From Escherichia coli (GTDB lineage Bacteria > Pseudomonadota > Gammaproteobacteria > Enterobacterales > Enterobacteriaceae), in assembly GCF_044324785.1 (NCBI RefSeq), contig NZ_CP172127.1: a stretch of 64,000 nt of DNA; one strand, given 5' to 3'. Numbering within the stretch: position 1 is the first letter of the stretch; every line of letters starts with the position of its first letter. Shown here piece by piece: positions 13,154 to 34,921 of this stretch. The position numbers were made by a program, and so were the translations under genes. The notes beneath the pieces are model-generated. The model searched no databases, had not been told where the DNA came from, and saw only the letters and a list, made by a program, of their open reading frames with translations.

Positions 13154-13182
13154 CGTATTTCCTTTACTATTAATAGCGTTGT

Positions 13183-14218: not shown

Positions 14219-14236
14219 TAAGTTTGAAATGACACC

Positions 14237-16953: not shown

Positions 16954-17739
16954 TTAGGAATTAAATGTCCAGCTACCCGTATCGGTCACAATGTCAGCTT
17001 CAATGATACGGTCACACTTCATATATTTGAACGTAGCCACATCACCGAATTTATATTTAGCTGGCAGGGTTCTGTTACCGGCGCTCTCCATTTTACAGTT
17101 CCCTCTGTTTACCCGAATGGATTTCAGCACCACGTTGTCATCAGTGATAGTGAGCTGAATAACACCATATTTGGTATTCCAGCCTTCATTACTGACGGAG
17201 CTGCCGAACTGAACTTTAAATGGTGATGTCGTAGGTTGCTGTGCCTGCTGTTGTTGAGAGGGAGCAGGTTTATTTGCCTGCTGGCTACCAACGCTATTAA
17301 TGCCATTCTGAAGGAGGCTTCTGGAAACCTTAATGGTACCCGGCTTGCATGATACTGTGCTGGTTTCCTGCCCCATTGCATTCATGACAGTGTAATAAGC
17401 ATCACCTGTACCATCATATTCTGAGTAATTGACTGCAACCGCGCCTTCGATATCTTCATTTTCTCCACGTAATGTGAAAGAAGCGGTTCCTGCTCCCGGA
17501 TTAGCCGCCAGAGTCTGTTTCGCTTCGCCGGAAGGAATATCCAGTTTAATAACAGAGCCGCTCTCTTCGGAGTCACCGCCAGGATTTTCAAAACTGATAT
17601 AAACGGTATTGCTGACGTGGCTGAGTGTCATTTGCTCACCGTTATCAAGCAGACATTGCAGGTCATAGGCCCCGACAGCATAAGCAGGGTGGAATGCAAA
17701 TAAAGATACAAACAATACAGGTATAATGATTGGTTTCAT
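16954..17739 (-). CDS. Secreted/periplasmic hypothetical protein with signal peptide and Gln/Pro-rich linker
   Basis: N-terminus MKPIIIPVLFVSLFAFHPAYA-VGAY fits a Sec signal peptide with AYA cleavage site; two predicted domains separated by SQQANKPAPSQQQQAQQPTT; 12 bp downstream of the GTPase gene on the same strand. Confidence 0.6.
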   Translation of the reverse strand: MKPIIIPVLFVSLFAFHPAYAVGAYDLQCLLDNGEQMTLSHVSNTVYISFENPGGDSEESGSVIKLDIPSGEAKQTLAANPGAGTASFTLRGENEDIEGAVAVNYSEYDGTGDAYYTVMNAMGQETSTVSCKPGTIKVSRSLLQNGINSVGSQQANKPAPSQQQQAQQPTTSPFKVQFGSSVSNEGWNTKYGVIQLTITDDNVVLKSIRVNRGNCKMESAGNRTLPAKYKFGDVATFKYMKCDRIIEADIVTDTGSWTFNS

Positions 17740-17751
17740 TAAGCACTTTCC

Positions 17752-18765: not shown

Positions 18766-18803
18766 ACGATGTCTCCTTTTTAATTTGAAATGAACGTTGT
18801 CTG

Positions 18804-19520
18804 TTACTCTCTGAAGGTCTGAATTACGTCACTTATGAAACGAAAGTGAGGGAGGGCTGAAATGAACTCTTCACTGGCAGTCAGAGCATCAAGTTCAGGC
18901 TTTCTGCGAAAAGAGGTATCCAGAACGGTTACGGCATTAACGTCTTCCATCCGAAACACCTGTAAATTTCTGGTGCGGGTAGCAACAAGAAACCAGTTTT
19001 TGGATTGAAATATCAAACGGCGGGGAGCTACTGCTTCGTAGCTTTTACCGTTAACTAATAATGTAACGGCGCGGTAGTCGCGGATAGCTTCCGCCAGTTC
19101 CAGAAAACAGGCGGTTTGTGTAACTGGAGATGGCAGCCCTCCATGCCCTATAAGGCACGGCGAGCTTCCGGAGTTACTGGTAATCAGTCGAATTAACCTG
19201 CGATTCTGAGCCGGAATAATCCCTGAAATCCCGGAATTACGGATAAACGCAAAGGTGTTGGGTGAGTGCTCCCAGCCCGTTCGGCGGATAAGTCGGTAGC
19301 TTCCGCTGGAATGCTCGAGATCCAGATGGATCAGGCGTTGCTGAAAATCCCGCTGTAGGGTGCGTTCTGAGACACCAAATTCATCAGCTAATACTTTAAG
19401 CTCCAGAGATTCACCAGCCAGTAAGCGGCTGATAATGACTGATAGCCTGACAGACAGGCGGTCATGATGATCATGCTGTGTTTTCATGGTGGGGACAGTC
19501 CTGTTCTCCCAAAATATCAT
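18804..19520 (-). CDS. YfjR-like transcriptional regulator (HTH plus WYL-like domain)
   Basis: N-terminal HTH region (LKVLADEFGVSERTLQRDF); the ORF track begins at a TTG at 19574 and in-frame ATGs lie at 19520 and 19487, so the start is uncertain. Confidence 0.55.
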   Translation of the reverse strand: MIFWENRTVPTMKTQHDHHDRLSVRLSVIISRLLAGESLELKVLADEFGVSERTLQRDFQQRLIHLDLEHSSGSYRLIRRTGWEHSPNTFAFIRNSGISGIIPAQNRRLIRLITSNSGSSPCLIGHGGLPSPVTQTACFLELAEAIRDYRAVTLLVNGKSYEAVAPRRLIFQSKNWFLVATRTRNLQVFRMEDVNAVTVLDTSFRRKPELDALTASEEFISALPHFRFISDVIQTFRE

Positions 19521-20062
19521 GGTATTGATACGGGAGATTATGCCGTACAGGTACGACACGTTATGTCGTACCAAAGGGGAGTGGATAGAAAAAATGGCGA
19601 AGATGCGAAAAGTTTATTAATGCATTGAAAAAGATGAATTAATAATGAACTTGGGTAAAAGCGCCATCAAAATACGACACGACCTGTCGTATTTTGTGTT
19701 AGCCGGGAAAGGATATCTGCTACTTACTAAAATGATTTAGTGCTGAAAATATTTGTAAGCCAATAAATAGACCGGTATTACGGAGTAACGCCCAGGCTAT
19801 GTTAACGAGCCCGCTGTTTTATTGGCTCAAAAAACATATCCCAGAGATGATCAGCCATACCCTCGTTAGTGAGCAAGGTATCCCTTGAGTAGCCATGGCT
19901 GAAGACGCCCATTGATGGGCGAAAACCAAGGTTCTGGCCGTTAGAACAGTTATGTCGTTAAACACATCACCACCATATGCCATCCGGCTCACTTCGTCGG
20001 CCAAATTAGTGTGATATTCTTTTCAGAATTCCTGTTGTATCCACAACATAAGGCGATGATTG

Positions 20063-23000
20063 ATGGAACAGTCTCTCAATTTTGAAATGTTGCGCAGCCA
20101 GTGGCCGGAACTGGCTGAACTCGCGTGTATGGCGGAACGCTATGTTCACTCCGATCCGGAAAGCTGCCTGGTTAAGCTGCGCAACTACACCGAATTGATG
20201 GTGCGCTGGTTGTATCGTCAGGAGCGGTTGCCGGAAGGTATTAAGGCTAATCTTTACGATTTAATGAATGCTGATGTCTTTACCAGCATGATGCCGGAAG
20301 CCATCATCATGAAAATGGATGCGCTGCGTATCCATGGCAACCGTGCCGCGCACGGCGGACGTATCAAAGCTAAAGATACCTACTGGCTGCTCAAAGAAGC
20401 GTATTTGTTGGGAATTTGGCTGTATGTTCGCTACGCCCACGGTAATGTTGATGACTGCCCCAAATTTACACTCCCTCCATTAACACAATCTTCAGGTCGT
20501 GCAGATGAAAAACGTCTGGAAGATGCAATCAAGGCTCAGGATGAAAGCCGTGAGCGCGAACTGGCGCTACAACGCGCACTACAGCAAGAACAGGAAAAGG
20601 CCGAACACCTCACTCAACGCCTGAATGAAGCCAGAGCGCGTAACCAGCATGTTGCCGATATTCTCTCTATTGATGAAGCTGAAACCCGCCGTCGCCTGAT
20701 TGACTCTCGCCTGCTTGCTGCTGACTGGAATGTAGGCGAAGAACTTAAAAATACCGATCAGGTTACACAGGAACATCCAGTTAAAGAACAGCCTACCGCT
20801 ACCGGTGACGGTTATGCGGACTATGTCTTGTGGGATGAGGCACACAAACCGCTGGCGGTGGTGGAAGCAAAAAAAACCAGCGTCAATGCCGAGCAAGGAC
20901 GAATTCAGGCCCGGCTGTATGCAGACTGGCTGGAAAAAGAATACGGTCAGCGTCCGGTCATCTTCTACACCAACGGTTACGATATCTGGCTGTGGGATGA
21001 CCATAAAACTCATGGTTATCCCCCGCGTCGGGTGTTTGGCTTCTACAGCAAGGAAAGCCTGCAATATCTTATTCAGCAGCGTGAAACCCGTCTACCGCTG
21101 AACAGTGTGCCGCACGTAAAAGACAACGAAGGTAAGGCCGTTGCCGGACGTTTGTACCAGCTTGAAACCATTGCCCGCGTTAGCGAACGGTTTACCAATA
21201 AATATCGTCAGTCATTAATCGTTCAGGCCACCGGCACCGGTAAAACCCGTGTAGCGATTGCACTGAGCAAACTGATGATTGATGCCCGCTGGGTAAAACG
21301 AGTCCTGTTTCTTTGCGACCGCAAGGAACTACGTAAACAGGCGGCGAATGCCTTTAATCAATTCACCAATGAGCCGCTGTATGTGGTCGGGAAATCGAAG
21401 AAAGCAGACAGGCAGAATGCCAGGATCTACATCGCCACCTATCCTGGTATGATGAAAATCATGGACCATTTCGATGTCGGTTATTTCGATTTGATCATCG
21501 CCGATGAATCCCACCGCTCTATCTACAACGTCTACGGCGATCTGTTTAAGTATTTTGATGCCCTCCAGATTGGCCTGACGGCCACGCCGATTGACATGGT
21601 GAGTAAAACCACTTTCGGCCTTTTTGGTTGTGAAGGACGTATTCCTACCGCCAACTACAGCCTGGAAGATGCCATCGCCGATAACAATCTGGTTCCCTAT
21701 GAGGTTGTCACACACACCACAGAATTCCTGCGCGAAGGCATCAAACGGGAGAAATTAAGCGACGCACAAATCCGCGAGCTGGAAGAACAAGGTATAGATC
21801 CCAATACGCTGGAGTTTGATGGCAAGGCGCTGGATGAGGCGATCTACAACAAAGACACCAACCGCTATATCCTGCGTAACCTGATGGAAAATGGCCTGAA
21901 AGATCGGGACGGCCAGTTGCCAGGTAAAACCATCATTTTCGCCCGTAACCACAAACACGCGCTGCTGTTGAATGAATTGTTCGACGATATGTATCCGCAG
22001 TTTGCCGGACGCTTCTGCCAGGTCATCGACAACTACGATCCCCGCGCCGAGCAACTGATTGATGATTTTAAAGGGCTGGATGAAAGCACCAACAAAGAGC
22101 TGACCATCGCTATCTCTGTTGACATGCTCGATACCGGTATTGATGTCCCGGAGATTGTGAATCTGGTCTTTGCCAAACCGGTCAAATCAAAAGTGAAGTT
22201 CTGGCAGATGATTGGCCGTGGTACGCGCCTCTGTCCGGGGTTGTACGGTTACGACGATAACGGCAAACCGCTGGATAAACAGAAATTCCGCATTTTCGAT
22301 CACTGGGGCAATTTTGAGTATCACGAGCTGCATGCCGAAGAGGCCGAAGTCACAGCGACAAAATCGCTTGCACAAAAACGCTTCGAAGCGTGGGTTATGC
22401 TGGGGGCCGCTGCGCAACGTAAATTCGACAAACAGGCGGTGGATTTAGTTGCTCACCAGCTTCGCGAGCAAATCAACGCACTGGATGAAAAGTCGATTGC
22501 CGTACAGGAAAAGTGGCAGCAAAAAGCGCAGTACAGTGATGAAAAGGTGCTGCGCCAGCTTTCTCCGAAAACACAGCAGGATCTGCTATCTATTCTAGCC
22601 CCGCTGATGCAGTGGCTGGACGTGCGCGGGCAAAGCGATGCCATACGCTTTGATATGGATATTCTGGCGGCGCAAACTGCCCGTTATACCAACCCGGAAG
22701 AGCTGGATGTGCTCTGGCCGGCCATCGTCGAAAAAGTGGAGCGCCTGCCGCCGCATTTGGCGCAGGTGCAGCAACAGGGACAACGAATCAATCAGCTTCG
22801 TGATCTAGGCTGGTGGAAGCAGGCCAGTCTGGAAGAGCTGGAGGATATCCGCATTCATTTGCGCGGTATCATGCACCTGATGGAAAAAGACACGACGCCG
22901 AAATTTGGTTCGATACAGGTGGATATTACCGAAGATGCGAACCTGATCCAGACGGAGACCCGCAAAACCAACATCCGTTCGATTGATTTCAAACTCTATC

Positions 23001-23476
23001 GCCAGCAGGTTCAGGGGGCGCTGGAGCCGCTGTTCCAGCAAAATCCGGTGCTGAAGAAAATCCGCAACGGCGAGCCAGTCACGCAAAACGAGCTTGATGA
23101 ACTGGCGAAGCTGGTGCTGATCCAGAACCCCAACGTTGATATCCGGGCACTGAAAGAGTTCTATCCGCAGGCAACCGCCAGCCTGGATAAACTTTTGCGT
23201 ACCATCATCGGGATGGACAGCGACGCGGTGGAAGTGCGCTTTGCTCAGTTCGCCGCTGATAACAGTCTAACCAGCCAACAACTGCGCTTCCTGTCATTGC
23301 TGAAAAACCACATTCGCGATTACGGCACCATTGAAATGCGGCAGCTCTTTGAACAGCCTTTTACGCATATCCACAACGAAGGCGTTACCGGTGTGTTCCC
23401 TGATATAGAGCAGATCGCCCGCCTGCAAAAGATAGTCGAAGAGCTGGGTGTTGTGACCGACGCAGCGACGGTATAA
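20063..23476 (+). CDS. hsdR: Type I restriction enzyme HsdR subunit (second type I system; family not assigned)
   Basis: ~1137 aa; motifs GYADYVLW...LAVVEAKK, Walker A QATGTGKTR and DEAH-like IIADESHRS; first ATG at 20063 (ORF track begins at an upstream TTG). Confidence 0.9.
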   Translation: MEQSLNFEMLRSQWPELAELACMAERYVHSDPESCLVKLRNYTELMVRWLYRQERLPEGIKANLYDLMNADVFTSMMPEAIIMKMDALRIHGNRAAHGGRIKAKDTYWLLKEAYLLGIWLYVRYAHGNVDDCPKFTLPPLTQSSGRADEKRLEDAIKAQDESRERELALQRALQQEQEKAEHLTQRLNEARARNQHVADILSIDEAETRRRLIDSRLLAADWNVGEELKNTDQVTQEHPVKEQPTATGDGYADYVLWDEAHKPLAVVEAKKTSVNAEQGRIQARLYADWLEKEYGQRPVIFYTNGYDIWLWDDHKTHGYPPRRVFGFYSKESLQYLIQQRETRLPLNSVPHVKDNEGKAVAGRLYQLETIARVSERFTNKYRQSLIVQATGTGKTRVAIALSKLMIDARWVKRVLFLCDRKELRKQAANAFNQFTNEPLYVVGKSKKADRQNARIYIATYPGMMKIMDHFDVGYFDLIIADESHRSIYNVYGDLFKYFDALQIGLTATPIDMVSKTTFGLFGCEGRIPTANYSLEDAIADNNLVPYEVVTHTTEFLREGIKREKLSDAQIRELEEQGIDPNTLEFDGKALDEAIYNKDTNRYILRNLMENGLKDRDGQLPGKTIIFARNHKHALLLNELFDDMYPQFAGRFCQVIDNYDPRAEQLIDDFKGLDESTNKELTIAISVDMLDTGIDVPEIVNLVFAKPVKSKVKFWQMIGRGTRLCPGLYGYDDNGKPLDKQKFRIFDHWGNFEYHELHAEEAEVTATKSLAQKRFEAWVMLGAAAQRKFDKQAVDLVAHQLREQINALDEKSIAVQEKWQQKAQYSDEKVLRQLSPKTQQDLLSILAPLMQWLDVRGQSDAIRFDMDILAAQTARYTNPEELDVLWPAIVEKVERLPPHLAQVQQQGQRINQLRDLGWWKQASLEELEDIRIHLRGIMHLMEKDTTPKFGSIQVDITEDANLIQTETRKTNIRSIDFKLYRQQVQGALEPLFQQNPVLKKIRNGEPVTQNELDELAKLVLIQNPNVDIRALKEFYPQATASLDKLLRTIIGMDSDAVEVRFAQFAADNSLTSQQLRFLSLLKNHIRDYGTIEMRQLFEQPFTHIHNEGVTGVFPDIEQIARLQKIVEELGVVTDAATV

Positions 23477-23490
23477 TACGCACATGACAA

Positions 23491-23516
23491 GCCCCGGCAG
23501 CGGGGCTTTTGTATTT
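23491..23516 (+). terminator. Rho-independent terminator between hsdR and hsdM
   Basis: GC hairpin GCCCCG-GCAG-CGGGGC followed by TTTTGTATTT, 15 bp after the hsdR stop. Confidence 0.7.
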
Positions 23517-23539
23517 AAAACAGGATATAAAAGCTAACA

Positions 23540-25174
23540 ATGATCACTGGTGACTTAAAAAGTAAAATCGACGGCCTGTGGGAAGATTTCTGGGTGGGTG
23601 GTATCACCAACCCGCTGACCGTAATCGAACAGATCACCTACCTGATGTACTCCCGGATGCTGGATACCCAGGAACAACGCGACGAGAAGCGTAAACAAAT
23701 CGCGGGTATTGATTTTAAACCGCGTTTTGCGCCAGAACAGCAGGAGTTCCGTTTCAGTCACTATAGCAACCTTGGCTCGGATGAGATGATGGAAGTGGTG
23801 CGCGATGGCGTATTCCAGCATTTTCGTCAGCTCGGCCTGGCTGATACATCAAAGGTGACGCTGCTGGGCAACTTTATGAAAGATGCCCGTCTGGAGATTG
23901 TTAAGCCGTCATTGCTGACCAAAGCGGTTGAGGTGATCAAAAACCTGCCATTGGATCGCGGCGATACCAAAGGCGACCTTTACGAATACCTGTTAAGCAA
24001 GCTGACCACTGCCGGGATCAACGGCCAGTTCCGCACGCCACGCCACATTATCCGCACGATGGTTGAAATGATGGAGCCGAACCCGGCCCGCGGCGAGATG
24101 ATTTGCGATCCGGCCTGTGGCACCGGTGGTTTTCTGGCAACCAGCTATGAATATCTGCTGGAGAAGTACAGCTCGCTGGAATCCATTCATACTGAGATTG
24201 GCACCAACGAACGTGGCGAGCTGGAAGAGCAAAAAATCTTTACCGGCGATCTGCTGATACCGTGGCGTAACCATGTGGATAACAATATGTTCCACGGTTA
24301 CGACTTTGATACCACAATGCTGCGTATCGCCGCCATGAACCTGATTATGCACGGCGTGGAAGCGCCGGATATTCACTATCAGGACACCATGAGCCAGAGC
24401 TTCAGCACTAACTTCCCTCAGGCAAGTAAAAACGCTTTCAACCTGATTCTGGCGAACCCGCCGTTTACCGGTTCACTGGACGAGGAAGATATCGACTCCA
24501 CGCTGTCGGCAATGGTGAAAACCAAAAAAACTGAACTACTGTTCCTGGCGCGTATTCTGCAAATGCTGAAAGTGGGCGGGCGCAGTGCCACTATCGTGCC
24601 GCAGGGCGTGTTGTTTGGCTCCAGTAAGGCGCACCAGTCACTTCGCAAAACGCTGGTGGAAGATAACCAACTGGAAGCGGTGATCAACCTGCCTTCCGGT
24701 GTATTTAAGCCTTACGCTGGCGTGGCAACGGCTATCCTGATCTTTACCAAAGGCGGTCAGACGGACGAGGTCTGGTTCTACGATCTGCAAAATGATGGCT
24801 ACAGCCTGGATGACAAGCGTAACCCGATTAAAGACAACGACCTGCCGCATCTGCTGGCAAGCTGGAAGCATTACCGTACTTTGCGTGGTTTGCCGGTAGA
24901 TAACTTTATGGGTGAGAAGTTAGCCTCGTTGCTTAAACAGCAGTACCCGGAAGGGATTGATGCTGGCGTTGATTTTAAAGATCGCACTCAGTCGGCGTTC
25001 GTAGTTCCAAAAGAAGATATTGCTGCGCAGAAATACGATCTCTCTATTAATCGTTATAAAGAAGTGGTGTATCAGGCGGAGGAATATGAAGATCCGAAGG
25101 TGATACTGAAACGATTAAAAGATCTGGAAAAAGAGATTCTGGCGGATTTGGATGAGCTGGAGGGGATGCTGTGA
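23540..25174 (+). CDS. hsdM: Type I methyltransferase subunit HsdM (second system)
   Basis: 544 aa; FRTPRHI, AdoMet-binding DPACGTGGF and catalytic NPPF motifs. Confidence 0.9.
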
Positions 25175-26349
25175 GTTGGCCGATGGTGAAGTTAGGCGAA
25201 ATTTTTACTATATCTCGAGGGGGGTCTCCAAGACCTATTCAAGATTATATTACTGACTCCTGTCATGGAGTAAATTGGATAATGATTGGTGATACTGAGC
25301 CAAATTCAAAATACATTAGACATACAGCAAAAAAAATAAAGTTTGAAGGAGTGAAAAAATCCAGAAAGGTCTACCCTGGAGATTTATTACTTACAAACTC
25401 TATGAGTTTTGGGCGTCCATATATACTTGATGTTGAAGGATGTATACATGATGGATGGTTGGTTCTAAGTCCTAAAAATAATCAAATACATATTGATTAT
25501 TTTTATCATTATTTAAATTCTCCAGCTGCAAAAATCATCATATCAAACAAGGCTGCTGGTGCAGTTGTAAAAAATTTGAACTCAGATATCGTGAGAAACT
25601 TGGAAATTCCGTTCCCTCCATTTGCGGAACAGGTAAGGATAGCTTCAACTCTCGATAAAGTCGATGGCATACGTCAAAAACGCGACCAAGCCATCAAACT
25701 GGCTGATGATTTTTTGCGTGCTACGTTTTTAGCGATGTTTGGTGATCCTGTTGAAAACCCGAAGAGATGGGATGTTGCTTCTTTGTTAGAATATGGTTCA
25801 TTTAAAAATGGAATGAATTTTACGAAAGGTGAGTCAGGCTCTGTACTGAAGTGCCTGGGAGTTGGCAATTTCAAATCACTAGCAACGATTACCTGTATGG
25901 ACAATATCGGTGAAATTGAATTAAATACTCTCCCTTCAGATGATTATCTTTTGAAAGATGGTGATATCGTCTTTGTCCGTTCTAATGGTAATAAAGCCTT
26001 GGTCGGAAGATGTCTTACTATTTATCCAGGCAAAGAGAAAGTTACATTTAGTGGATTTTGTATCCGCTACAGAATAGAAAATACTGCAATCACCCCAGAA
26101 TATCTTAACTTTCTCTTCCGTACACCTTCAATGAAACAGCAAATGTTAAGCGGGGGGCAAGGAGCGAATATTCAGAATATTAGCCAAGGTACCTTATCCG
26201 CACTCAGGATACCAGTCCCTCCCTTAGAAAAACAACAGGCATTTTCTAAAGTAGTGAGTTTTCACTCGGCACTAATGGAAAAACTAGATATTAATACAGT
26301 TGAAATAGAAGATATGTTTGACTCAATCAGTCAACAATATTTTAATTAA
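25171..26349 (+). CDS. hsdS: Type I specificity subunit HsdS (second system)
   Basis: 392 aa; start overlaps the hsdM stop (GTG at 25171, or ATG at 25183); two AT-rich variable regions plus conserved HsdS helices. Confidence 0.85.
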   Translation: MSWPMVKLGEIFTISRGGSPRPIQDYITDSCHGVNWIMIGDTEPNSKYIRHTAKKIKFEGVKKSRKVYPGDLLLTNSMSFGRPYILDVEGCIHDGWLVLSPKNNQIHIDYFYHYLNSPAAKIIISNKAAGAVVKNLNSDIVRNLEIPFPPFAEQVRIASTLDKVDGIRQKRDQAIKLADDFLRATFLAMFGDPVENPKRWDVASLLEYGSFKNGMNFTKGESGSVLKCLGVGNFKSLATITCMDNIGEIELNTLPSDDYLLKDGDIVFVRSNGNKALVGRCLTIYPGKEKVTFSGFCIRYRIENTAITPEYLNFLFRTPSMKQQMLSGGQGANIQNISQGTLSALRIPVPPLEKQQAFSKVVSFHSALMEKLDINTVEIEDMFDSISQQYFN

Positions 26350-26370
26350 TCAGGATTATTATTAATAAAA

Positions 26371-27057
26371 ATGAAAAAAATTGATATGCGAATACTGGTC
26401 CTGTTTATACTGGCCGTAATGCCTTTGTTGCCCTATCTTTATATTTTTCATGAAGGTTTTTCCCATAAGTCTGATGATTGGGGTAATTTTGGTTCTTTTA
26501 TGGGAGGAGCCGTTGCTCCTTTCCTTTCGGTACTGAGTATAGTATTGGTTTTGAGAACAATTGAATTAACTCAAAAGAACCATGCCGAGCAACTATCACA
26601 AGTAACAAAAGAGCATAACTACAATAAATTCAATGATCTGTGCGATTTCCTTGAAAAATCTATATTAAAGAGTTGGTTGGTTAATGATAAAGAAAGACGA
26701 CAACAGGTTATCCAGTCTTTAACAATAACAACTATTGGTGATGTCGTTTTTCGTTCTAATGAAAATGCGACACCTGAAGAACAACGTCGGTATGCAGAAG
26801 AAAATGCACAAAGAGTATTGTCATTCATGTCAGATGATATCAGAGAAATAATAGTTTGCCTCGATTATTTTTGTGACTTTATCCTGGATGATAAAAATCA
26901 TGATACTGAATTCATGAAAAATATCGCAGAAATAAGGCTGGATAATCATGTTCGATTCATTATATCTCTATATGTTTACCTAAATAATAAAAATTTAAAT
27001 CTATTATTAAATAAAAAATGGAAGAGCTTTAGACCATCTATAGACGAGTTGGTATAA
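26371..27057 (+). CDS. Hypothetical 2-TM membrane protein (228 aa), same strand and 22 bp downstream of hsdS
   Basis: Two predicted N-terminal transmembrane helices (ILVLFILAVMPLLPYLYIF; FMGGAVAPFLSVLSIVLVL) followed by a ~165-aa soluble domain; very AT-rich. Confidence 0.6.
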   Translation: MKKIDMRILVLFILAVMPLLPYLYIFHEGFSHKSDDWGNFGSFMGGAVAPFLSVLSIVLVLRTIELTQKNHAEQLSQVTKEHNYNKFNDLCDFLEKSILKSWLVNDKERRQQVIQSLTITTIGDVVFRSNENATPEEQRRYAEENAQRVLSFMSDDIREIIVCLDYFCDFILDDKNHDTEFMKNIAEIRLDNHVRFIISLYVYLNNKNLNLLLNKKWKSFRPSIDELV

Positions 27058-27097
27058 CTATTGTCCCGCCAATTGTTTTATAATTGGCGGGATGTCA

Positions 27098-30000
27098 TTA
27101 TTTTTTGAACTCAACCAGTCTCTTATATTGGGGGGTATTAATTAACTTTTTCTTAGCTTTGATAATATCGACCAAACAGATTTCTATTTCCTCAGCACAT
27201 CCTCGTTGATTATCCATAATCAAACTGATAAGTTCTAATGTTTGAGATGGAAATTTATTTGGTATCTCTGACTCGTATAATTTTTTCAGTGTATAATGAG
27301 GCCATTCAAATGGAATGATCCACGGTTTTACAGTATCGAATATATCCTGAAACCTATCCTGGCCCGCAATACAGAGTTGCACTAAATTCTCTGAAATTCC
27401 CGGCGTCCTTAACTTTTGAGATTTTGGCCATATCTTCTTTAAAAATATTTTTATACAGTTATCCCAATATTCAGAATATTGTTCTCCTGAGCTTTCAATT
27501 GCATCTACAAGAGTATTAGTTGAGATTATCAGGCTCTCCGATGGAAGATTTCTAAACGCTTTTTGATAATCGTCAAGAACATAGTCTTTTGTCGGTTCAA
27601 GTGCAGCATATGTCAAAAAGATAGTATATTGTTTTTTAGCATCAGTATCTCCAAGATCTTGATAGTGTTCCGCTGTTTTCAAAAAAGCTTGTTTAAATGC
27701 AGCAAGCAATGGGGCATAAAGACGAGGGGTCCATAAGAAACCAGGCCATACTGATTTTGCTTCAAGAAAATTACTATCCCAAATAAATAATGGTAGAAGG
27801 TACTTTTTCGCCCAATTTGTGTCAACTCTGAATAATGGGATCAAATTTGAGGCTAAAATAACTCTGGAATTTCTGAAAGAGATATTATGGGTGTCACATA
27901 GCTTTGTGAAAAAGACTTTCAATTTATCTGGTATGCCCTCATTATCATGCGGCTTACCATTGAGCCATATATTTATTAATGCTTGTGTAATATTTCCTAC
28001 AGGATGATTTATAGCTTGTATTATTGATTTATAATCATCTGTTTCATCGTAACTAAAATCTATAATACGCTGACAATATGTAGTATAAACATCATTCAAC
28101 TCACTCATTCCTGTGGAAATTTTCGCTAACCATTGAGCGAGGCTGTGCTGAATCTCAGGGAATAAATCATCTGGAATATTTAATAATAATGGTCCTATTT
28201 CTTGCCAGGACTCCTGAATCAGGTCTTTATCACACCAAGTCTGTAAACCTGAACGCCAATATTTGCATGGCCAAATATCCTCCATGGCTAATTCGCGAAG
28301 CACACAAACAATCATCGGTAAGTTTTGTTTACATATTTCGATCCAGTTATCACGTTCAAACGGAGATGATTTCTTATTATCAGCCCTTTCTCTTAACCAG
28401 TTGATGATGCCGTCCTTTGTATCTGGGACCATTTCTGTAATTATTTCCTCTTCAAAATCGGGATCTCCTGTTCCACTCATCCAATGCGAAAATTCGTCTC
28501 TTTCATTTGTGGTCAATTTCCAGTAAGGATGTTTTTCTGATAAAAAATCCAATTTGTTCTGTGCATTTATATTGAGCTTTACACCTGAAAATTGTAGTTT
28601 TGATAAGAACAACCATATATTTCTTTCGACTATATTTTCCCATTCATTCTCATTAATAGAAATATTGAATAATTCCTGTGAATATCCTAGTGTTATTGCA
28701 TTTTCAAGCTTTCGTTGTTCAATGGCAGTTAGTGTTTTACCTTGCAAAACGAAGAGTCGGCAAACTTCACGATGAGTATCAATAGCCCACAACCAATAGC
28801 CATTTTGTTCCAGTAATAGATTCACCCATTCTTTAGCATCAATGCATTCATTATAACTGGCAGAAAAAATGACCAAACGCTTAAATACTGGATATGGAAA
28901 TGACCACCAATTTAAAGCAAGTTTTTTAGCTTTGTTTTTATCTATTTCATAGATTTGCAACCAAGAATCTCTCAAAAGTTCAATTAGTTTCACCCAATTA
29001 CGATAACCTCTATTTTGCCAATGAGGCGTAATTGATGGTAAGTCCCAAAAAGATCGATCACTTGCACTTATGGAATTATCATTCAGTTCAAATTGTAAAT
29101 CCATCGCATCAAGAAGTAATTGTTGAAGATCATCAAACAAGGATGGCAAGATTTCCTTCCATATTGATTTATTTTCTAAATCTTGTAGCCAATAAAGATC
29201 TGTTGATATATTTAATTCATGCCTTACAGATTGTGAAATATTTTTTTCATTTTGGGATGATTTATTAAAATTTAGTTGAAAAGGTTGTTGCAGGATAAGG
29301 GTAGGCGCTAAAATTTTTCTTAGCGCTAACCGGCAAGCCATATTGAAATTGCCATGTTGAAATTGATCTATCCAATAATTATTTTCATATACAGATGAAT
29401 TGGTCCCTATTCTTCCTGCTAAGAATAAACGCCAAATAGCTCGTAAATTCTGAGATGGGATCGCATGTAGTCCTTCTTGCTTGATACGTTTGAGAGACTG
29501 CTCCTCATTGTTTCTTTCTAATCGTTCAATCTCACTCAACCTATTACTTATTAAATTTGATAACTGGGGATGCAGTTTTCCCCCTTGCTTTGCTAACCAA
29601 ATGATTAAGTCAACGTTACCAATATGTTTTATCAGCCATAAACAAATATATACCATAACAGAATCCCACTGACAAAATTCGCCACCAAAAGAAGCTAAAC
29701 TCATTCGTGGTGAAAGTTTGTATGAGGAAGGGCGATTAATCAGGCTAAATTGAAGATTAGGATCAAATTCAGAATGGGCCGGGGTATTAAAGCGAGGTAG
29801 ATCTGGATATCTATAAGATTTTTTTTCAAATTCCCATAACCAACTTAGTGTGGGAGCAGGATTCATTTCTGCCAGGCGTTTTGCGGGCTTACCGGAATTA
29901 TCACTTAATGCCCATAAAACCCTTCCAACAAAATTATCCTCTTGAGTACTTGTCGAAGGATGGGCAATTACATATTGGGCTACAATTCTTTCTTTACCCA

Positions 30001-30889
30001 TACTTCCATTGTTATATATTTCTCCCCATATTTTTAATGTCTCATGAAGTAATTCATGCTTCTTAGTCGTTTTGTACAAAACAGGAATGACCCCTTTGGC
30101 TTCCCAAATTTCAGCCGTTGTAGATTCTTCATTTGGTTTATAATCTGCAAAGGCATATGCTTGAGGGGTATATTCGCCTAACATCCTATCTGCTGCTAAA
30201 GCATCCATCATATAGCGTAATACAGGATCATTAATACTATATCCTATAAAACAAACAACATAGTTTCTAAATAGTTCACTTACAAATCTGGCAGCCCATC
30301 TTTCTGTTAAATAAGCACATCCGAAATCACCACTGGTAACTACCAGACGGTTCAACTCTGTATGATTTTTTTTATCATGAGGTAATATTCCGTGCAAGTA
30401 AACCACTCCATTCCATCTACTATTTTTTGGAACAGGTAACATAGGTGCCAAATATGATGTTAGTTTCTTCTCCATATTTTTCGCAGCTATGTCAAAAAGA
30501 TGATCAAAATTTGTGGTGACAAGTCGTATGCGCCCACCTTGATCTTGAGATAATTGTAAGAGAGCATTATGAGTTGTTAGGGCATTTTTTCTTCGAACCT
30601 TTGGTTTCAATATCTGAGACAATGCATAGCGTACAGTTTGTTTATTTCCTACTATTCTTCTCTCAAGAAGTTCTAATGTTGTATCATATTGGTAAGCTTT
30701 ATAGGCGGCTTCTTCGAGAGCATTCCGTGTTTCACCGATTCTTTGATATATGTTGTCAACCAAATCTCCAAACCCCGGTAATCCAGCAGGATATGAAATT
30801 CCCGCTCCGCAGAAGAATACAACTTTCCCCTCTTCGTGTGCTTGTAGTAATGAATCGGGAATATCTGGACCATTAGTAATAAACTGCAT
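27098..30889 (-). CDS. Large SIR2-domain protein (1263 aa): N-terminal sirtuin-like NADase domain plus ~1000-aa helical C-terminal region; candidate defence-associated sirtuin (DSR-like) single-gene defence protein
   Basis: N-terminal Rossmann motif VVFFCGAGISYPAGLPGFGDL (GAGIS), TTNFDHLF (TTN-D motif) and a conserved His in VYLHGIL, as in SIR2/DSR/ThsA NADases; no similarity to housekeeping CobB is evident; monocistronic on the minus strand. Confidence 0.7.
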   Translation of the reverse strand: MQFITNGPDIPDSLLQAHEEGKVVFFCGAGISYPAGLPGFGDLVDNIYQRIGETRNALEEAAYKAYQYDTTLELLERRIVGNKQTVRYALSQILKPKVRRKNALTTHNALLQLSQDQGGRIRLVTTNFDHLFDIAAKNMEKKLTSYLAPMLPVPKNSRWNGVVYLHGILPHDKKNHTELNRLVVTSGDFGCAYLTERWAARFVSELFRNYVVCFIGYSINDPVLRYMMDALAADRMLGEYTPQAYAFADYKPNEESTTAEIWEAKGVIPVLYKTTKKHELLHETLKIWGEIYNNGSMGKERIVAQYVIAHPSTSTQEDNFVGRVLWALSDNSGKPAKRLAEMNPAPTLSWLWEFEKKSYRYPDLPRFNTPAHSEFDPNLQFSLINRPSSYKLSPRMSLASFGGEFCQWDSVMVYICLWLIKHIGNVDLIIWLAKQGGKLHPQLSNLISNRLSEIERLERNNEEQSLKRIKQEGLHAIPSQNLRAIWRLFLAGRIGTNSSVYENNYWIDQFQHGNFNMACRLALRKILAPTLILQQPFQLNFNKSSQNEKNISQSVRHELNISTDLYWLQDLENKSIWKEILPSLFDDLQQLLLDAMDLQFELNDNSISASDRSFWDLPSITPHWQNRGYRNWVKLIELLRDSWLQIYEIDKNKAKKLALNWWSFPYPVFKRLVIFSASYNECIDAKEWVNLLLEQNGYWLWAIDTHREVCRLFVLQGKTLTAIEQRKLENAITLGYSQELFNISINENEWENIVERNIWLFLSKLQFSGVKLNINAQNKLDFLSEKHPYWKLTTNERDEFSHWMSGTGDPDFEEEIITEMVPDTKDGIINWLRERADNKKSSPFERDNWIEICKQNLPMIVCVLRELAMEDIWPCKYWRSGLQTWCDKDLIQESWQEIGPLLLNIPDDLFPEIQHSLAQWLAKISTGMSELNDVYTTYCQRIIDFSYDETDDYKSIIQAINHPVGNITQALINIWLNGKPHDNEGIPDKLKVFFTKLCDTHNISFRNSRVILASNLIPLFRVDTNWAKKYLLPLFIWDSNFLEAKSVWPGFLWTPRLYAPLLAAFKQAFLKTAEHYQDLGDTDAKKQYTIFLTYAALEPTKDYVLDDYQKAFRNLPSESLIISTNTLVDAIESSGEQYSEYWDNCIKIFLKKIWPKSQKLRTPGISENLVQLCIAGQDRFQDIFDTVKPWIIPFEWPHYTLKKLYESEIPNKFPSQTLELISLIMDNQRGCAEEIEICLVDIIKAKKKLINTPQYKRLVEFKK

Positions 30890-31038
30890 CTCGTTGCCTG
30901 GTTAGTTTGTGAAATGAATTTTGATTATAAATCTTCTTTATTGGTTCATGTAAGAAATCGGCACTGCCTTTTGACCGATAGCTGATATAGTATGTCTAAG
31001 TTATGATGATATAACATTTCTTACCTTGGATAGTAACA

Positions 31039-32004
31039 ATGCCTTTAGATTTAAGTAAAACTTTAGTTATTGGCATCAGCGCGACTGCGCTTTTTGATAT
31101 GAGTGAATCAGATCACATGTTTCGCGAAACCTTTGTGACTGATCCTGATAGCGCCATTGAAAAATACCGCGCTTATATGCTAGAACACGAAAACCAACCT
31201 TTACAGCCCGGAACAGGCTACCCCTTAGTCAAAGCGTTGCTGGGTCTGAACCAGTACCGTCAACCGGATGATAAATCGCCGTTGGTTGAGGTTGTTGTGA
31301 TGTCACGTAACAGCCCTGATACCGGTATCCGTGTTCTGAATACTATTCGCCATGACAGGCTCGATATCACTCGATCGGCCTTTACGGCAGGCGAAACCGT
31401 TGCCGATTACCTTGATGCCTTTGATGTGGATCTGTTTTTAACGACCAACGTCGAGGATGCGCAAAAGGTGATTGATTCCCGATTCTGCGCCGCTGCAATC
31501 CTGAAAGATCCTCCTTCCGACGCATCTGATATCCCGGAAGGGCAAGTGCGCATTGCTTTTGACGGCGACGCGGTACTTTTTTCCGATCAAAGCGAACTGG
31601 TTTATAAGACCCAAGGAATGGCTGCCTTTCATGCTCAGGAAGACGCGCAGCAGGATATCCCTATGGAAGAGGGGCCTTATGCCACTTTGCTAAAAAAAAT
31701 AGCCAAGCTTCAGGAACGATTGCCGACCCGCGTTGAGTATTCTCCTGTTCGTATTGCGCTGGTGACAGCCCGAAATAGCCCTTCGGAAATGCGCGTTATT
31801 AAAACGCTAAGAAGCTGGGGGGTATATGTCGATGAAGCTTTTTTTCTTGGCGGTGTAGAGAAAACAAAAGTTCTGAAGGCGTTTAAGCCACACATTTTCT
31901 TTGACGATCAGGATGTACATTTGATCGCGGCTGCAAAGGTAGTACCTTCTGGTAAAGTACCTTATGCCAGTAACTCCGAACTGGCAGAACGTGAAGCATC
32001 GTGA
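31039..32004 (+). CDS. HAD-superfamily 5'-nucleotidase-like protein (321 aa)
   Basis: HAD motif I-like FDGDAVLF (DxDxV); overall resemblance to the bacterial/eukaryotic cytosolic 5'-nucleotidase family from memory; divergent from the SIR2 gene with a 149-bp intergenic region. Confidence 0.55.
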   Translation: MPLDLSKTLVIGISATALFDMSESDHMFRETFVTDPDSAIEKYRAYMLEHENQPLQPGTGYPLVKALLGLNQYRQPDDKSPLVEVVVMSRNSPDTGIRVLNTIRHDRLDITRSAFTAGETVADYLDAFDVDLFLTTNVEDAQKVIDSRFCAAAILKDPPSDASDIPEGQVRIAFDGDAVLFSDQSELVYKTQGMAAFHAQEDAQQDIPMEEGPYATLLKKIAKLQERLPTRVEYSPVRIALVTARNSPSEMRVIKTLRSWGVYVDEAFFLGGVEKTKVLKAFKPHIFFDDQDVHLIAAAKVVPSGKVPYASNSELAEREAS

Positions 32005-32013
32005 TTATCGCTG

Positions 32014-32048
32014 ACAAACCATTTAGTCATTAAGGCTGGATGGTTTGT
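32014..32048. terminator. Inverted repeat (9-bp stem ACAAACCAT / ATGGTTTGT) between the convergent nucleotidase and HNH genes
   Basis: Read directly, 10 bp after the nucleotidase stop. Confidence 0.4.
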
Positions 32049-32081: not shown

Positions 32082-32957
32082 TCAATGCTCTCCTCTGAAC
32101 ACCTCTTTTCTGTGCCATTCAACAAACTGCTCGCCCGGATAATTTTCTTTAACCGGTGGCAACGCAATCGCCTTTCCCGCAAAATCCCAGAACAGTCGCT
32201 GTACCACTCCACCACCATTTACCGCGCCGGAAACCACCACACGCATATTTTCATCCAAGCCAATCGAACCGCGATCAAACGCTTTATGATGGATTGCGCA
32301 CAATGCCAGGCCATTAGGTACTTCACAAGGGCCATGGTGCTGCTTCCATCTGATATGAGCGGCTTCCAGAGCAATCGGCGCATTGTCGTGGCGCATGTTA
32401 AAGCCGCAGATAGCGCACTGATAATTGTAAGCACGTAGCACCATCTGGCGAAACTTCGGATCGCGTTGACGGAGAGAGGTGCGAATATCAAAACCCATCT
32501 CGTCAGCGATCTCTTCCTGAATACTGGCCGGGAAATGCGCCTCCAGGAGCTGCTGCGCCAGCGTATCAATTAACCTGTGATTTTTTGCCACCAACGCAAA
32601 ATTATCGGCATCAAATCCACCAGCAACATTATATTCAATGAGTTCTCGTCGGGGCGGCTGGCGGCTACCACTGGTTGAGCACAGTTCCGCGTTATGTAGT
32701 TCCCAGAAGCCATCGCCCTTCAGACGCCAGAACGGCATGTCCGGGCGCTGGTCACGGCGCTGCGGTCCATAACGTTCCAGGAGATCCAACAGGGGCTCGT
32801 AGATTTCAGAACCATAGTTAAACAGGCGACCATGACCCTGCCGATAGTGTGAGAGAACGTACAGCAGCAATAATGGCTTATGTGGCGCACGTTGTTCGCC
32901 TTTGCGCCAGATGGTGATATTTGATATCGCTTGCTTTAGGGTTTTGTCAGAGGTCAT
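32082..32957 (-). CDS. HNH-motif nuclease with uncharacterised N-terminal domain (candidate modification-dependent type IV restriction endonuclease)
   Basis: C-terminal HNH-like motif YNYQCAICGF...AAHI...LCAIHHKAFD; start set at the first in-frame ATG (the ORF track begins at a TTG at 33002); monocistronic. Confidence 0.55.
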   Translation of the reverse strand: MTSDKTLKQAISNITIWRKGEQRAPHKPLLLLYVLSHYRQGHGRLFNYGSEIYEPLLDLLERYGPQRRDQRPDMPFWRLKGDGFWELHNAELCSTSGSRQPPRRELIEYNVAGGFDADNFALVAKNHRLIDTLAQQLLEAHFPASIQEEIADEMGFDIRTSLRQRDPKFRQMVLRAYNYQCAICGFNMRHDNAPIALEAAHIRWKQHHGPCEVPNGLALCAIHHKAFDRGSIGLDENMRVVVSGAVNGGGVVQRLFWDFAGKAIALPPVKENYPGEQFVEWHRKEVFRGEH

Positions 32958-33172
32958 TGCGTTGGAGAATCCATGAGCACATATTTGCGATGATGCTCGC
33001 AACTATATGTACATTCAAGGCATTATTGCAGACATCCTTTTTCTCTGGCGGTTCTGTACCTGGCAGATAGAATTCTGATAACAACGGTAAAAAATACAGC
33101 GACCAACCAGTCCTAAGCGGGCTGGTTGGTCTTTTAAATTTAAACATCAGCCGAGGAATAACGGCATTCAAC

Positions 33173-34441
33173 TCACTCGCCATTACCCCGATTGATCTTC
33201 GCATAGTCAAACGGCGTAATCGCTCTCTCCCGATTCGCATCCAGAAAATCGGCCCACCACTGCAACATCAGCTTGCGCTCATCCAGATGTTCCGCTTTAT
33301 GGATATACGCCGCTCGCACCGAATTGCGCTCCATATGACTCATCTGTCGTTCCACCGCATCCTTCGACCATAACCCGGACTCAATTAACGAGCTACAGGC
33401 CATTGTGCGGAAGCCGTGGCCGCAAACTTCAACCTTAGTGTCATAACCCATCACCCGTAGCGCACTGTTCACCGTGTTTTCACTCATGGGCTTACGCGGA
33501 TCGTGATCGCCAATAAAAATCAGCTCATGCTCACCACAGAACTGCTTTATCTGCTTCAGGATCGCCAGCGCCTGCTTTGAAAGCGGCACCAGATGCGGTG
33601 TGCGCATCTTTGTTCCTCGCTGAGAATGTTTCACGCCGGGAATCGGTTCTCGCTCAGGAGGGATGGTCCACATTGATGTTTCAAAATCGATCTCTGACCA
33701 ACGAGCAAAACGCAGCTCACTGGACCGAATAAAGATAAGCAGAGTGAGTTCTGTCGCCCAGCGGGTTAGCGGCCTGCCGGTATAGCCGTCTATTTTCTCA
33801 AGCAACTCAGGGATGCGCTTTAACTCCAGCGCCGGACGATGCTGTCGATTACTGGAAGCAACCGCCCCCGCCATCTCTTGCGCCGGATTGTAATCAATTA
33901 ACCCGCTTTGCACTGCATAACGCATGATGGCCGTGGTGCGCTGTTGAAGGCGGGAAGCCACTTCAAGGCGTCCGGATTTCTCCACGGCTTTAATAGGAAT
34001 TAACAGATCGCGGGTGCCTAGTTCAGCAATATTGCGAGTACCAATTGCCGGGAAGATATTGTCCTCCAGGCTCTTTTTTACACGATTAGCATGATCTTCC
34101 GACCATTTTTGGTTGGTTACGAACCACTCTCTGGCAACCTTCTCGAAAGTAATAATCTCTTTCGCCTGCTCTTCTTTCACAGCACGCTTATGCTCACGAG
34201 GATCGATACCAGCAGCTACCAGCTTTCTGGCCTCTTCCCTTTTCTTCCGCGCATCCGCCAGTGAAACATCCGGGTAAACGCCGAACGCCATCAAATGTTG
34301 TTTACCGCCAAAACGGAAACGAAATCGCCAATACTTTGAACCGCCAGGTTTTACAAGTAAGGACATGCCGTCGCCGTCAACAAGTGAATACTCTTTCTCC
34401 TCTGGTTTCGCAGAACGAACTTTAGTATCCGTTAGGGCCAT
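33173..34441 (-). CDS. intB: P4-family tyrosine integrase (IntB-like), adjacent to the tRNA-Leu 3' end
   Basis: 422 aa from MALTDTKVRSAKP...; catalytic-domain motifs of phage integrases (HGFRTMA..., HxxR region); followed by a hairpin plus U-tract terminator at ~33088..33131 on the minus strand. Confidence 0.9.
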   Translation of the reverse strand: MALTDTKVRSAKPEEKEYSLVDGDGMSLLVKPGGSKYWRFRFRFGGKQHLMAFGVYPDVSLADARKKREEARKLVAAGIDPREHKRAVKEEQAKEIITFEKVAREWFVTNQKWSEDHANRVKKSLEDNIFPAIGTRNIAELGTRDLLIPIKAVEKSGRLEVASRLQQRTTAIMRYAVQSGLIDYNPAQEMAGAVASSNRQHRPALELKRIPELLEKIDGYTGRPLTRWATELTLLIFIRSSELRFARWSEIDFETSMWTIPPEREPIPGVKHSQRGTKMRTPHLVPLSKQALAILKQIKQFCGEHELIFIGDHDPRKPMSENTVNSALRVMGYDTKVEVCGHGFRTMACSSLIESGLWSKDAVERQMSHMERNSVRAAYIHKAEHLDERKLMLQWWADFLDANRERAITPFDYAKINRGNGE

Positions 34442-34640
34442 AGTGGTCTTCCTTCCATTGGTATCTCGTGAGTATACAAGCAATATCGAATCGGCAAATA
34501 TACTCATTAGTATACTCACAAGCCTGTTGATGTGGGTTGAGTCAGGTTGACTTCAGTTGAGGAGAAAAGCTGGAAAAGCCTTGTGTAGCGCGGATTTCAG
34601 GCATAAAAAAAGACCTCAGTTGAGGTCTATTTACATACTT

Positions 34641-34725
34641 TTGGTGCCGAAGGCCGGACTCGAACCGGCACGTATTTCTACGGTTGATTTTGAATCAACT
34701 GCGTCTACCGATTTCGCCACTTCGG
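34641..34725 (-). tRNA. leuX: tRNA-Leu (anticodon CAA), leuX
   Basis: Reverse complement reads GCCGAAGTGGCGAAATCGGTAGACGCAGTTGATTCAAAATCAACCGTAGAAATACGTGCCGGTTCGAGTCCGGCCTTCGGCACCA, an 85-nt type II tRNA with CAA anticodon and CCA end. Confidence 0.97.
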
Positions 34726-34921
34726 CACTGAAGAGGTATGCGGAAAACGTTGTGGATTATACCTGTCGCACGCCACCATGCAAGCGCCAGCTTGCTCGCA
34801 CCTCGCTAAGTGCTGAAATTTTCAGCATTGCATACAGCGATGTGTAACCTTTGTCACACTCCAGGCACCCCGCCCTGCCATGCTCTACACTTCCCAGACA
34901 ACACCAGAGAAGGACCAAAAA

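Follow-up and report, generated by a model that had tools for sequence, protein, structure and literature searches.

A gene of the HAD-type 5'-nucleotidases, here called nt5, lies in a 64,000-nucleotide stretch of Escherichia coli contig NZ_CP172127.1 (assembly GCF_044324785.1), which was analyzed as a whole and is referred to below as the window. The best explanation of nt5 is that it encodes a phosphatase linked to restriction-modification (R-M) which clears the (deoxy)nucleoside 5'-monophosphates ((d)NMPs) that arise from DNA breakdown. Both the chemistry of nt5 and its linkage to R-M are well supported. The defense role is read from the context of the gene, and the explanation as a whole is offered tentatively, with a chance somewhat short of even.

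An earlier note on this DNA, made from the letters alone, had described a 321-amino-acid HAD-type protein with cytosolic 5'-nucleotidase-like character, and both the gene and its character are borne out. The open reading frame (ORF) at 31039..32004 on the plus strand starts with ATG and encodes 321 amino acids, of which residues 1-312 match the Pfam family PF06189, "5-nucleotidase", over model positions 1-300 of 302 (E 8.5e-119). Human NT5C1A/cN-IA belongs to the same family (PMC5098729, Table 1). An alignment of 83 homologous sequences, reaching down to 34% identity, revealed that D175, D177, T243, K275, and D289 of HAD motifs I-IV are invariant, while D290 is conserved in at least 90%; the sequence FDGDAVLF, residues 174-181, contains motif I. 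The AlphaFold2 (AF2) model of the protein (pLDDT 94.4, pTM 0.91) has its fold in common, over the full length, with models of bacterial "5'-nucleotidases" (TM 0.85-0.97), and these structure matches place it among the HAD Rossmannoid folds. A sequence search of the PDB with nt5 returned nothing at E <= 1, an NCBIfam scan gave no matching model, and the Pfam scan detected neither CARF nor PUA nor any other domain besides PF06189. Judged from its sequence, nt5 encodes a catalytically complete HAD phosphatase of the Mg-dependent type that belongs to the cN-IA (PF06189) family of 5'-nucleotidases. The gene and its parts are located as follows.

31039..32004, plus strand: nt5, cN-IA-type (PF06189) HAD 5'-nucleotidase, PADLOC candidate PDC-S08 (Pfam, PADLOC, alignment, AF2 model)
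31039..31533, plus strand: N-terminal pseudo-HAD domain, residues 1-165 (self-alignment, hhalign)
31534..32001, plus strand: C-terminal catalytic HAD domain, residues 166-321 (invariant columns, HAD fold matches)
31561-31575, plus strand: HAD motif I, D175-x-D177-x-V179 (codons read from the sequence)
31765-31767, plus strand: HAD motif II, T243 (codon read from the sequence)
31861-31863, plus strand: HAD motif III, K275 (codon read from the sequence)
31903-31908, plus strand: HAD motif IV, D289-D290 (codons read from the sequence)

The nt5 protein is an internal tandem, in which a degenerate pseudo-HAD domain is followed by a HAD domain of the active type. Its Smith-Waterman self-alignment scored 75, compared to 33.7 +/- 6.3 for shuffled sequences (z = 6.6), and hhalign aligned the profiles of the N- and C-terminal halves over 144 columns with a probability of 99.0% (E 7e-18). 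The catalytic positions have been replaced in the N-terminal domain (S14, T16, V121, T135, T136), which is still well conserved: A17, L18, F19, S89, N91, and R98 are each found in at least 90% of the 83 sequences. This half might act as a regulatory or oligomerization module. The sequence search revealed no solved structure for any PF06189 member, and the native cN-1A structure has been reported as unsolved (PMC12195718); the tandem architecture of nt5 would therefore bear on the allosteric regulation of human cN-IA.

The frequencies of linkage to restriction systems given here rest on about 25 lineages, which is not a census. The top 120 database clusters of nt5 are 72-91% identical and come from Shewanella, Pseudoalteromonas, Alteromonas, Photobacterium, Azotobacter, Desulfomicrobium, and other genera. 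In 10 lineages of 9 genera, nt5 is located downstream of hsdS of one type I R-M family, at distances that differ between the genera.

hsdS-nt5 gap of 21-35 bp, same strand: Pseudoalteromonas tetraodonis, P. luteoviolacea, Photobacterium, Alteromonas, Neiella
hsdS-nt5 gap of 97-381 bp: Pseudomonas endophytica, Azotobacter, Marinomonas
hsdS-nt5 gap of 3.2-6.5 kb: Shewanella, with changing defense cargo (AAA_15 set, McrBC, Zorya, ArdC-like)

Taking E. coli and Shewanella together, the gap measures 1.9-6.5 kb and contains defense cargo. The nt5-linked Hsd proteins of the other genera form one family with those of the window (HsdM 56-65%, HsdR 43-53% identical to the window copies), and the C-terminal domain EcoEI_R_C (PF08463) is recorded on their HsdR homologues. 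Across the linked genera, nt5 is 73-82% identical and is more conserved than either HsdM or HsdR. When five genera were chosen before their contexts were viewed, the order rtcR-like-hsdRMS-nt5 was present in four of them; the fifth, Desulfuromonas, carries a solitary nt5 between transposases. Close relatives, at about 72% identity or higher, are overwhelmingly located in defense or R-M islands: of 17 such lineages with known context, 10 are tied to the type I R-M family and 13 to any restriction system. A type III res gene stands 27-126 bp in front of nt5 in Desulfomicrobium and in the Firmicute Alicyclobacillus, and these two nt5 copies group together in a neighbor-joining (NJ) tree. GmrSD/DUF262 is encoded 31-65 bp downstream of nt5 in Azotobacter, P. 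putida pKF715A, and Desulfomicrobium, the Pseudidiomarina copy is surrounded by a type II R-M system, SLATT, and GmrSD, and on a Vibrio tubiashii plasmid nt5 is present within a defense island. These comparisons support well the view that the nt5 lineage is mobile and that its usual place is that of the last gene in an operon hsdR-hsdM-hsdS-nt5. The gene had been described earlier as stand-alone; its conserved partner is the type I R-M operon, located at 20060-26349 in the window, and not the SIR2 or HNH neighbor. The co-occurrence of homologues with defense islands, proposed in the earlier note as a check, holds at about 72% identity and above and breaks down at 43-50% and for several homologues at 65-70%, which occupy housekeeping loci.

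Several other gene sets were seen next to nt5 in these genera (coordinates are preceded by the number of the locus). A block of GmrSD_N/DUF262, VWA, PP2C phosphatase, and Ser/Thr kinase genes (then an AAA_11 helicase gene) recurs after nt5 in Azotobacter and P. putida pKF715A; the VWA-PP2C-kinase portion is also present on one Shewanella contig (L016:11009-19181, L108:10007-14760, L013:16840-19633). A conserved ORF of 55 amino acids precedes nt5 in Shewanella (9661-9828 in L009-L012), where the gene is followed by a conserved cluster encoding three dynamin-like/LeoA-like GTPases and a CxxCxxCC protein (L009-L012:11152-16343). In Desulfomicrobium (L014:15607-18723), about 4.6 kb 3' of nt5, an ADP-ribosylglycohydrolase (ARG) fused to rhodanese-type phosphatase domains is encoded together with a PnuC-like transporter of nicotinamide mononucleotide (NMN) and a NadR-like gene. 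The stretch resembles the ARG-centered anti-ADP-ribosylation systems that have been predicted (PMC9503650); the "HAD 5'-nucleotidase" of those systems could not be tied to PF06189.

Outside E. coli, a gene for an RtcR-like enhancer-binding protein with CARF, AAA+, and helix-turn-helix (HTH) parts usually stands in front of the nt5-linked type I R-M operon, as was seen in eight genera. The Photobacterium copy matches PADLOC RtcR_PspF2 (E 9e-183), the others having been identified by Sigma54_activat Pfam hits or by position.

RtcR-like genes: L112:2118-3676, L113:931-2496, L114:1862-3387, L116:2223-3770
RtcR-like genes: L016:2135-3639, L022:2205-3764, L011:1-473, L052:26-1540

A sigma-54 promoter, TGGCA(C/T)-N5-T(T/C)GC, is clearly recognizable in seven of the eight short gaps in front of hsdR; in the Neiella gap, TTGA takes the place of TTGC. 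Judging from this arrangement, a signal sensed through CARF may induce hsdR and perhaps all of the operon, nt5 included. Neither such a sigma-54 promoter, as seen in the marine modules, nor the RtcR-like activator is present in the window. A more far-reaching proposal, rated as doubtful, is that nt5 is the fourth component of a widespread, inducible module (RtcR-like CARF activator, sigma-54 promoter, and hsdR-hsdM-hsdS-nt5) that would couple restriction to the destruction of (d)NMPs.

Within E. coli, the nt5 region matches 99 of 5426 complete genomes, and 47 of these 99 matches cover at least 80% of the query. In all E. coli genomes inspected, nt5 is the integrase-proximal gene of an integrative island at leuX, at selC, or beside pheU, and on the far side of nt5 the same type I R-M operon hsdR-hsdM-hsdS is found. 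Nucleotide homology between islands with differing cargo ends 0-11 bp before the ATG of nt5 (the match spans query positions 139/150-1192 in islands with other cargo), so that hsdS and nt5 are seen to be the conserved arms of a cargo slot. By these comparisons, the hsdS-nt5 junction is an insertion hotspot for defense cargo, the contents of which are listed below.

Window, E6, and TUM18781: 228-aa membrane protein and Dsr1
S43: 529-aa SIR2 protein (PDC-S25)
ET358: Septu-like AAA+HNH pair (PDC-M01)
E. coli W: unknown proteins of 582 and 88 aa
A12: unknown proteins of 1093 and 421 aa
G3/10: unknown protein of 580 aa

Some occupants are not matched by PADLOC, namely the 582- and 88-aa proteins of E. 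coli W, a 421-aa protein in A12, a 580-aa protein in G3/10, a 203-aa protein in FLI21, and the 228-aa protein of the window (slots at 26350-31038 in the window and at L002:6658-9000, L005:2794-8011, L006:6167-8011, and L004:7279-7890). They are candidate new defense genes.

In the window, the island genes around nt5 are arranged as follows.

20060..23476, plus strand: hsdR, 1138 aa, member of the type I R-M family that accompanies nt5 in other genera too (PADLOC REase_I, E 4.5e-274)
23540..25174, plus strand: hsdM, 544 aa (identity to nt5-linked HsdM of other genera)
25171..26349, plus strand: hsdS, 392 aa, left flank of the variable defense slot (ORF, comparison)
26371..27057, plus strand: 228-aa predicted membrane protein, inserted cargo (ORF)
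27098..30889, minus strand: dsr1, 1263 aa, inserted cargo filling the hsdS-nt5 slot (PADLOC, NCBIfam)
30890..31038, no strand: divergent dsr1-nt5 intergenic region, 149 bp (island comparison)
32014..32048, no strand: hairpin with a 15-bp stem between the convergent nt5 and phosphorothioate (PT)-dependent endonuclease genes (folding)
32082..33002, minus strand: phosphorothioated-DNA-binding HNH restriction endonuclease (NCBIfam NF045808, 445 bits)
33173..34519, minus strand: tyrosine integrase of the island, given by its ORF limits, RefSeq homologues starting later (ORF, strain E6 comparison)
34642..34726, minus strand: tRNA-Leu(CAA) gene leuX, attachment site of the island (tRNA call)

The position of nt5 between a SIR2 gene and an HNH nuclease gene, as reported in the earlier note, is correct; the two neighbors are Dsr1 (NCBIfam NF041818, 1670 bits at a cut-off of 1400) and the PT-dependent HNH endonuclease, RefSeq homologues of which start at approximately 32957. 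Likewise, comparison confirmed that nt5 is missing from the leuX neighborhood of K-12. The 228-aa protein has no match in PADLOC or NCBIfam. Together with Dsr1 it forms an insertion of 4.7 kb between hsdS and nt5, so that nt5 stands apart, beside the integrase. Among the contexts inspected, Dsr1 adjoins nt5 only in the island type of E6, TUM18781, and the window, and the 149-bp spacer is common only to islands that carry Dsr1. The PT-dependent HNH nuclease is found only in E. coli islands of the leuX type; it was rejected as an obligatory partner of nt5, being absent from the nt5-carrying selC islands and from other genera. A hairpin does exist downstream of nt5, as had been noted, and the 86-nt region containing it folds at -23 kcal/mol (z = -3.4). 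Neither strand has a T-run after it, and an intrinsic terminator was rejected on this ground.

Upstream of hsdR, at 16954-19700 on the minus strand, annotation from strain E6 places genes for a regulator with a WYL domain and for a member of the GTPase family, along with a hypothetical gene; palindromes of the form ACGACA..TGTCGT at 19551-19571 and 19672-19693 resemble operators to which the WYL regulator could bind. Compared to strain E6, the distal part of the island (11973-15091) has a CP4-57-like backbone with DUF932, RadC, a YeeU/CbtA toxin-antitoxin pair, and DUF4942, so the island is a classical integrative element whose defense cargo occupies the end near the integrase.

If the preferred explanation holds, nt5 would hydrolyze (d)NMPs to nucleosides through a phospho-enzyme (acyl-phosphate) intermediate at Asp175, and the monophosphates cleared in this way would stem from degraded DNA, either restricted phage DNA or host DNA degraded by the phage. 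Much of the DNA of phages T4 and T7 is known to be built anew from dNMPs of the host. The most likely pay-off would be that lytic phages are denied salvaged dNMPs that would otherwise be re-phosphorylated for genome replication. It is ranked first only because no particular substrate specificity has to be assumed for it, in agreement with the finding that nt5 has no residues peculiar to the island copies. A second pay-off could be the sanitation of modified dNMPs such as N6-methyl-dAMP (m6-dAMP) and hydroxymethyl-dCMP (hm-dCMP), by which phage DNA would gain no protection and host DNA would not become a nuclease target. A third could be the quenching of dNMP-derived danger signals. m6-dAMP from chromosome degradation triggers PUA-Cal-HAD, and phage T5 Dmp hydrolyzes dAMP and thereby blocks Kongming.

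The earlier note was not aware of nt5 belonging to a named system. The gene is in fact already listed as the candidate PDC-S08 in PADLOC, the hidden Markov model (HMM) of which (PDLC04900) matches residues 1-316 (E 6.7e-134). PDC-S08 is a computational guilt-by-association candidate that is handled as a single gene, and nt5 is a direct member by HMM; as far as the tools show, the entry holds neither the hsdRMS linkage nor the tandem-domain anatomy. Vertebrate NT5C1A/cN-IA shares with nt5 the full-length Pfam family and the HAD catalytic motifs, whereas the bacterial protein lacks the eukaryotic extensions and is encoded in a mobile R-M/defense island. AMP and pyrimidine dNMPs are substrates of cN-IA, and ADP acts as its activator. 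By analogy, the 5'-deoxyribonucleotidase Dmp of phage T5 may come close to the predicted chemistry of nt5, as its dNMP hydrolysis has consequences for immunity, but Dmp is an anti-defense protein encoded by a phage and nt5 is encoded by the host or its island and is nearly absent from phages. PUA-Cal-HAD and the CARF-HAD protein Chp of type III CRISPR are HAD-fold phosphatases that act on nucleotides in anti-phage systems. Both are coupled to a sensor, PUA binding m6-dAMP and CARF binding cyclic tetra-adenylate (cA4), while nt5 has only its pseudo-HAD domain; moreover, the HAD of PUA-Cal-HAD acts on dNTPs (dATP to dADP), whereas the nt5 family is one of 5'-monophosphatases and the gene is tied to R-M operons. 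By its domain content, nt5 is not a member of these sensor-coupled HAD systems. The GmrSD-like TgvAB is embedded in a type I R-M operon on VPI-2 of Vibrio cholerae, where such an operon on an integrative island likewise forms the scaffold for inserted defense genes; unlike in that case, one border of the nt5 slot is a conserved enzyme gene of metabolic type that itself comes from the ancestral operon. Tal et al. are said to have described in 2022 that dCTP deaminase and dGTPase defenses deplete dNTPs in an infection-triggered manner. The logic proposed for nt5 is the same, in that phage DNA synthesis would be starved of precursors, but nt5 would act on monophosphates and salvage and gives no sign of being triggered. 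No description of a conserved nucleotidase arm or of an hsdRMS-nt5 module was found in the literature. Already known, then, is that nt5 was flagged as a phage-defense candidate; new are its type I R-M partner (often under RtcR-like/sigma-54 control), the hotspot architecture, the tandem pseudo-enzyme anatomy, and the kinship with housekeeping genes.

The rival explanation that survives best, although it is considered unlikely, holds that nt5 is a metabolic passenger or structural flank: a housekeeping-type nucleotidase that was captured once by a type I R-M operon and kept as a homology arm, without a role in defense. It would then serve nucleoside salvage or the homeostasis of phosphate or of the nucleotide pool. 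A number of observations weigh against the preferred reading of nt5 as a defense phosphatase, and several of them favor the passenger. First, the closest relatives outside the islands are housekeeping genes, as is apparent from their neighborhoods at 65-70% identity.

Methylophilaceae: adjoins an rsmB-like gene and purM
Kangiella: follows tol-pal and queEC
Budvicia and two Campylobacterota: housekeeping loci
A metagenome-assembled genome: adjoins alaS-lysC-csrA

The clade at 43-50% identity, which is dominant in Lachnospiraceae and Clostridia, also occupies housekeeping loci, with a conserved DUF1653-nt5-sfsA/mutY block near comEC, holA, and glyA (gene identities read by eye from translations). 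Second, the island copies group in the NJ tree, nested inside the housekeeping lineages, and a comparison of 15 island with 9 housekeeping copies found no position that is fixed in the former and lacking from the latter; with zero island-diagnostic positions, a neofunctionalized island paralogue was rejected. The simplest history would be that the R-M operon captured an ordinary nucleotidase under strong constraint, which has been traveling with it since, biochemically unchanged. Third, nt5 is extremely conserved and evolves very slowly, unlike typical immunity proteins that sense phages. No recognizable infection sensor was detected in the protein by the Pfam scan, and the only domain added to the catalytic one is the pseudo-HAD duplicate, whereas triggered nucleotide-depletion effectors are defined by such a sensor. 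Fourth, in a set of 100 strains of P. aeruginosa, PDC-S08 showed a 50/50 split between those resistant and those susceptible to phages, with no enrichment in the resistant ones; this is the sole mention found in the literature. Searches on PDC-S08, on PF06189, on nucleotidases with anti-phage or R-M, and on NT5C1A with bacteria or phage yielded no functional study of the family. A 2021 review of characterized microbial nucleotidases contains no bacterial PF06189 enzyme, which is why the substrate range of nt5 was extrapolated from the family name. Fifth, pseudogenized copies exist, nt5 being frameshifted or truncated in E. coli FLI21, in Ps. endophytica (L052), and in Marinobacterium. Sixth, nt5 is not co-transcribed with hsdRMS in the window, where 4689 bp including the divergent dsr1 separate it from the end of hsdS at 26349. 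The promoter region of its own that had been ascribed to it is not apparent either: a scan of the 149-bp spacer (30890-31038) for a sigma-70 consensus gave no match, and such a promoter was rejected. In favor of the passenger, finally, the homology between E. coli islands with different cargo breaks exactly at the start of nt5 and at the end of hsdS, as it would at recombination flanks. A neutral flank, however, would be expected to decay or to be replaced, while nt5 is intact and more conserved than HsdM and HsdR across at least nine genera of horizontally moving modules. It also recurs beside restriction systems of types I, III, and IV in unrelated phyla, including the Firmicute/Desulfobacterota pair that clusters together.

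According to a second rival, judged quite unlikely, nt5 is a guardian of epigenetic identity or an alarm quencher that prefers modified or signaling dNMPs (m6-dAMP, hm-dCMP, dAMP/dIMP). In that case, it would avert the re-incorporation of modified bases as well as the needless firing of abortive infection after successful restriction, an outcome that is held to be equally improbable. The location of nt5 between R-M systems blocked by modification (type I and III by N6-methyladenine, type II by 5-methylcytosine) and modification-dependent nucleases, which are the PT-dependent HNH enzyme in the window and GmrSD/DUF262 or McrBC elsewhere, is in keeping with this, as are the proven role of m6-dAMP as a danger signal and the silencing of Kongming through dAMP hydrolysis by T5 Dmp. 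Plasmid pZMOB01 of Zymomonas mobilis moreover carries a distant PF06189 gene next to a KomABC-like set, and the Kongming preprint lists a "5'-nucleotidase" among the genes associated with KomBC. This support is contextual, and large defense islands juxtapose many systems by chance; no specificity determinant was identified, and type IV enzymes are missing from the nt5-carrying selC islands of E. coli.

The pZMOB01 homologue (L111:6899-10462) is unannotated and 42% identical to nt5; its neighbors, a SIR2 protein, a HAM1-type NTP pyrophosphatase, and an adenosine deaminase, make up the Kongming (KomABC) gene set. Another plasmid copy, a PF06189 gene of 40% identity on the E. coli IncI plasmid NZ_CP133855.1 (L110:1830-2759), has fosA10 and an IS4-like element as neighbors. 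The simplest explanation is a chromosomal fragment that was mobilized together with the fosfomycin-resistance gene, and the copy shows that PF06189 copies of the housekeeping clade reach plasmids too.

Two further readings are poorly supported. In the first, nt5 would form a two-gene system with Dsr1 by processing NAD-related mononucleotides such as NMN, thereby reinforcing NAD+ depletion or preventing a phage from reconstituting NAD+. The divergent arrangement of nt5 and Dsr1 in the window, the different SIR2 protein (PDC-S25) in the same slot of another E. coli island, and the SIR2 gene beside the distant Zymomonas homologue point in this direction. Dsr1, however, is defined as a single-gene system (NCBIfam equivalog), the slot contains unrelated cargo in E. 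coli W, A12, G3/10, ET358, and Shewanella and is empty in at least six genera, and the constant partner of nt5 is hsdRMS rather than SIR2. With a neighbor that varies or is absent, a Dsr1/SIR2 partnership was rejected and is regarded as very improbable. The other reading, an anti-defense or anti-restriction factor of a mobile element that, like Dmp, would help the island to establish itself in new hosts, can draw on the proven anti-defense role of the T5 enzyme, on the integrase-proximal position of nt5 in E. coli islands, and on its presence on some conjugative plasmids, but it has hardly any likelihood left, as nt5 is operonic with hsdS in most genera and not in a leading or early region of the element, its housekeeping relatives are near-identical at key residues, and only 3 of 50,697 phage records match, all unannotated fragments, by which a phage-encoded anti-defense gene was rejected.

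Whatever the function of nt5, its arrangement with hsdS as conserved arms offers a practical handle for the mining of new defense genes, and some type I restriction systems may, judging from the RtcR-like activator and sigma-54 promoter of the ancestral operon, respond to an inducing signal that is perceived through a CARF domain. Should nt5 be the fourth component of such a module, it would represent the first defense activity at the level of nucleoside monophosphates and their salvage, as well as the first enzymatic accessory of type I R-M. This component would starve phages that rebuild their genomes, or it would erase m6-dAMP and dAMP/dIMP, by which escape, self-restriction, and needless abortive infection would be prevented. 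If a nucleotidase does support restriction or defense, nucleotide immunity would extend from triphosphate depletion and cyclic-nucleotide signaling to the monophosphate salvage pool, on which T4- and T7-like phages depend and which is the source of the m6-dAMP and dITP danger signals.

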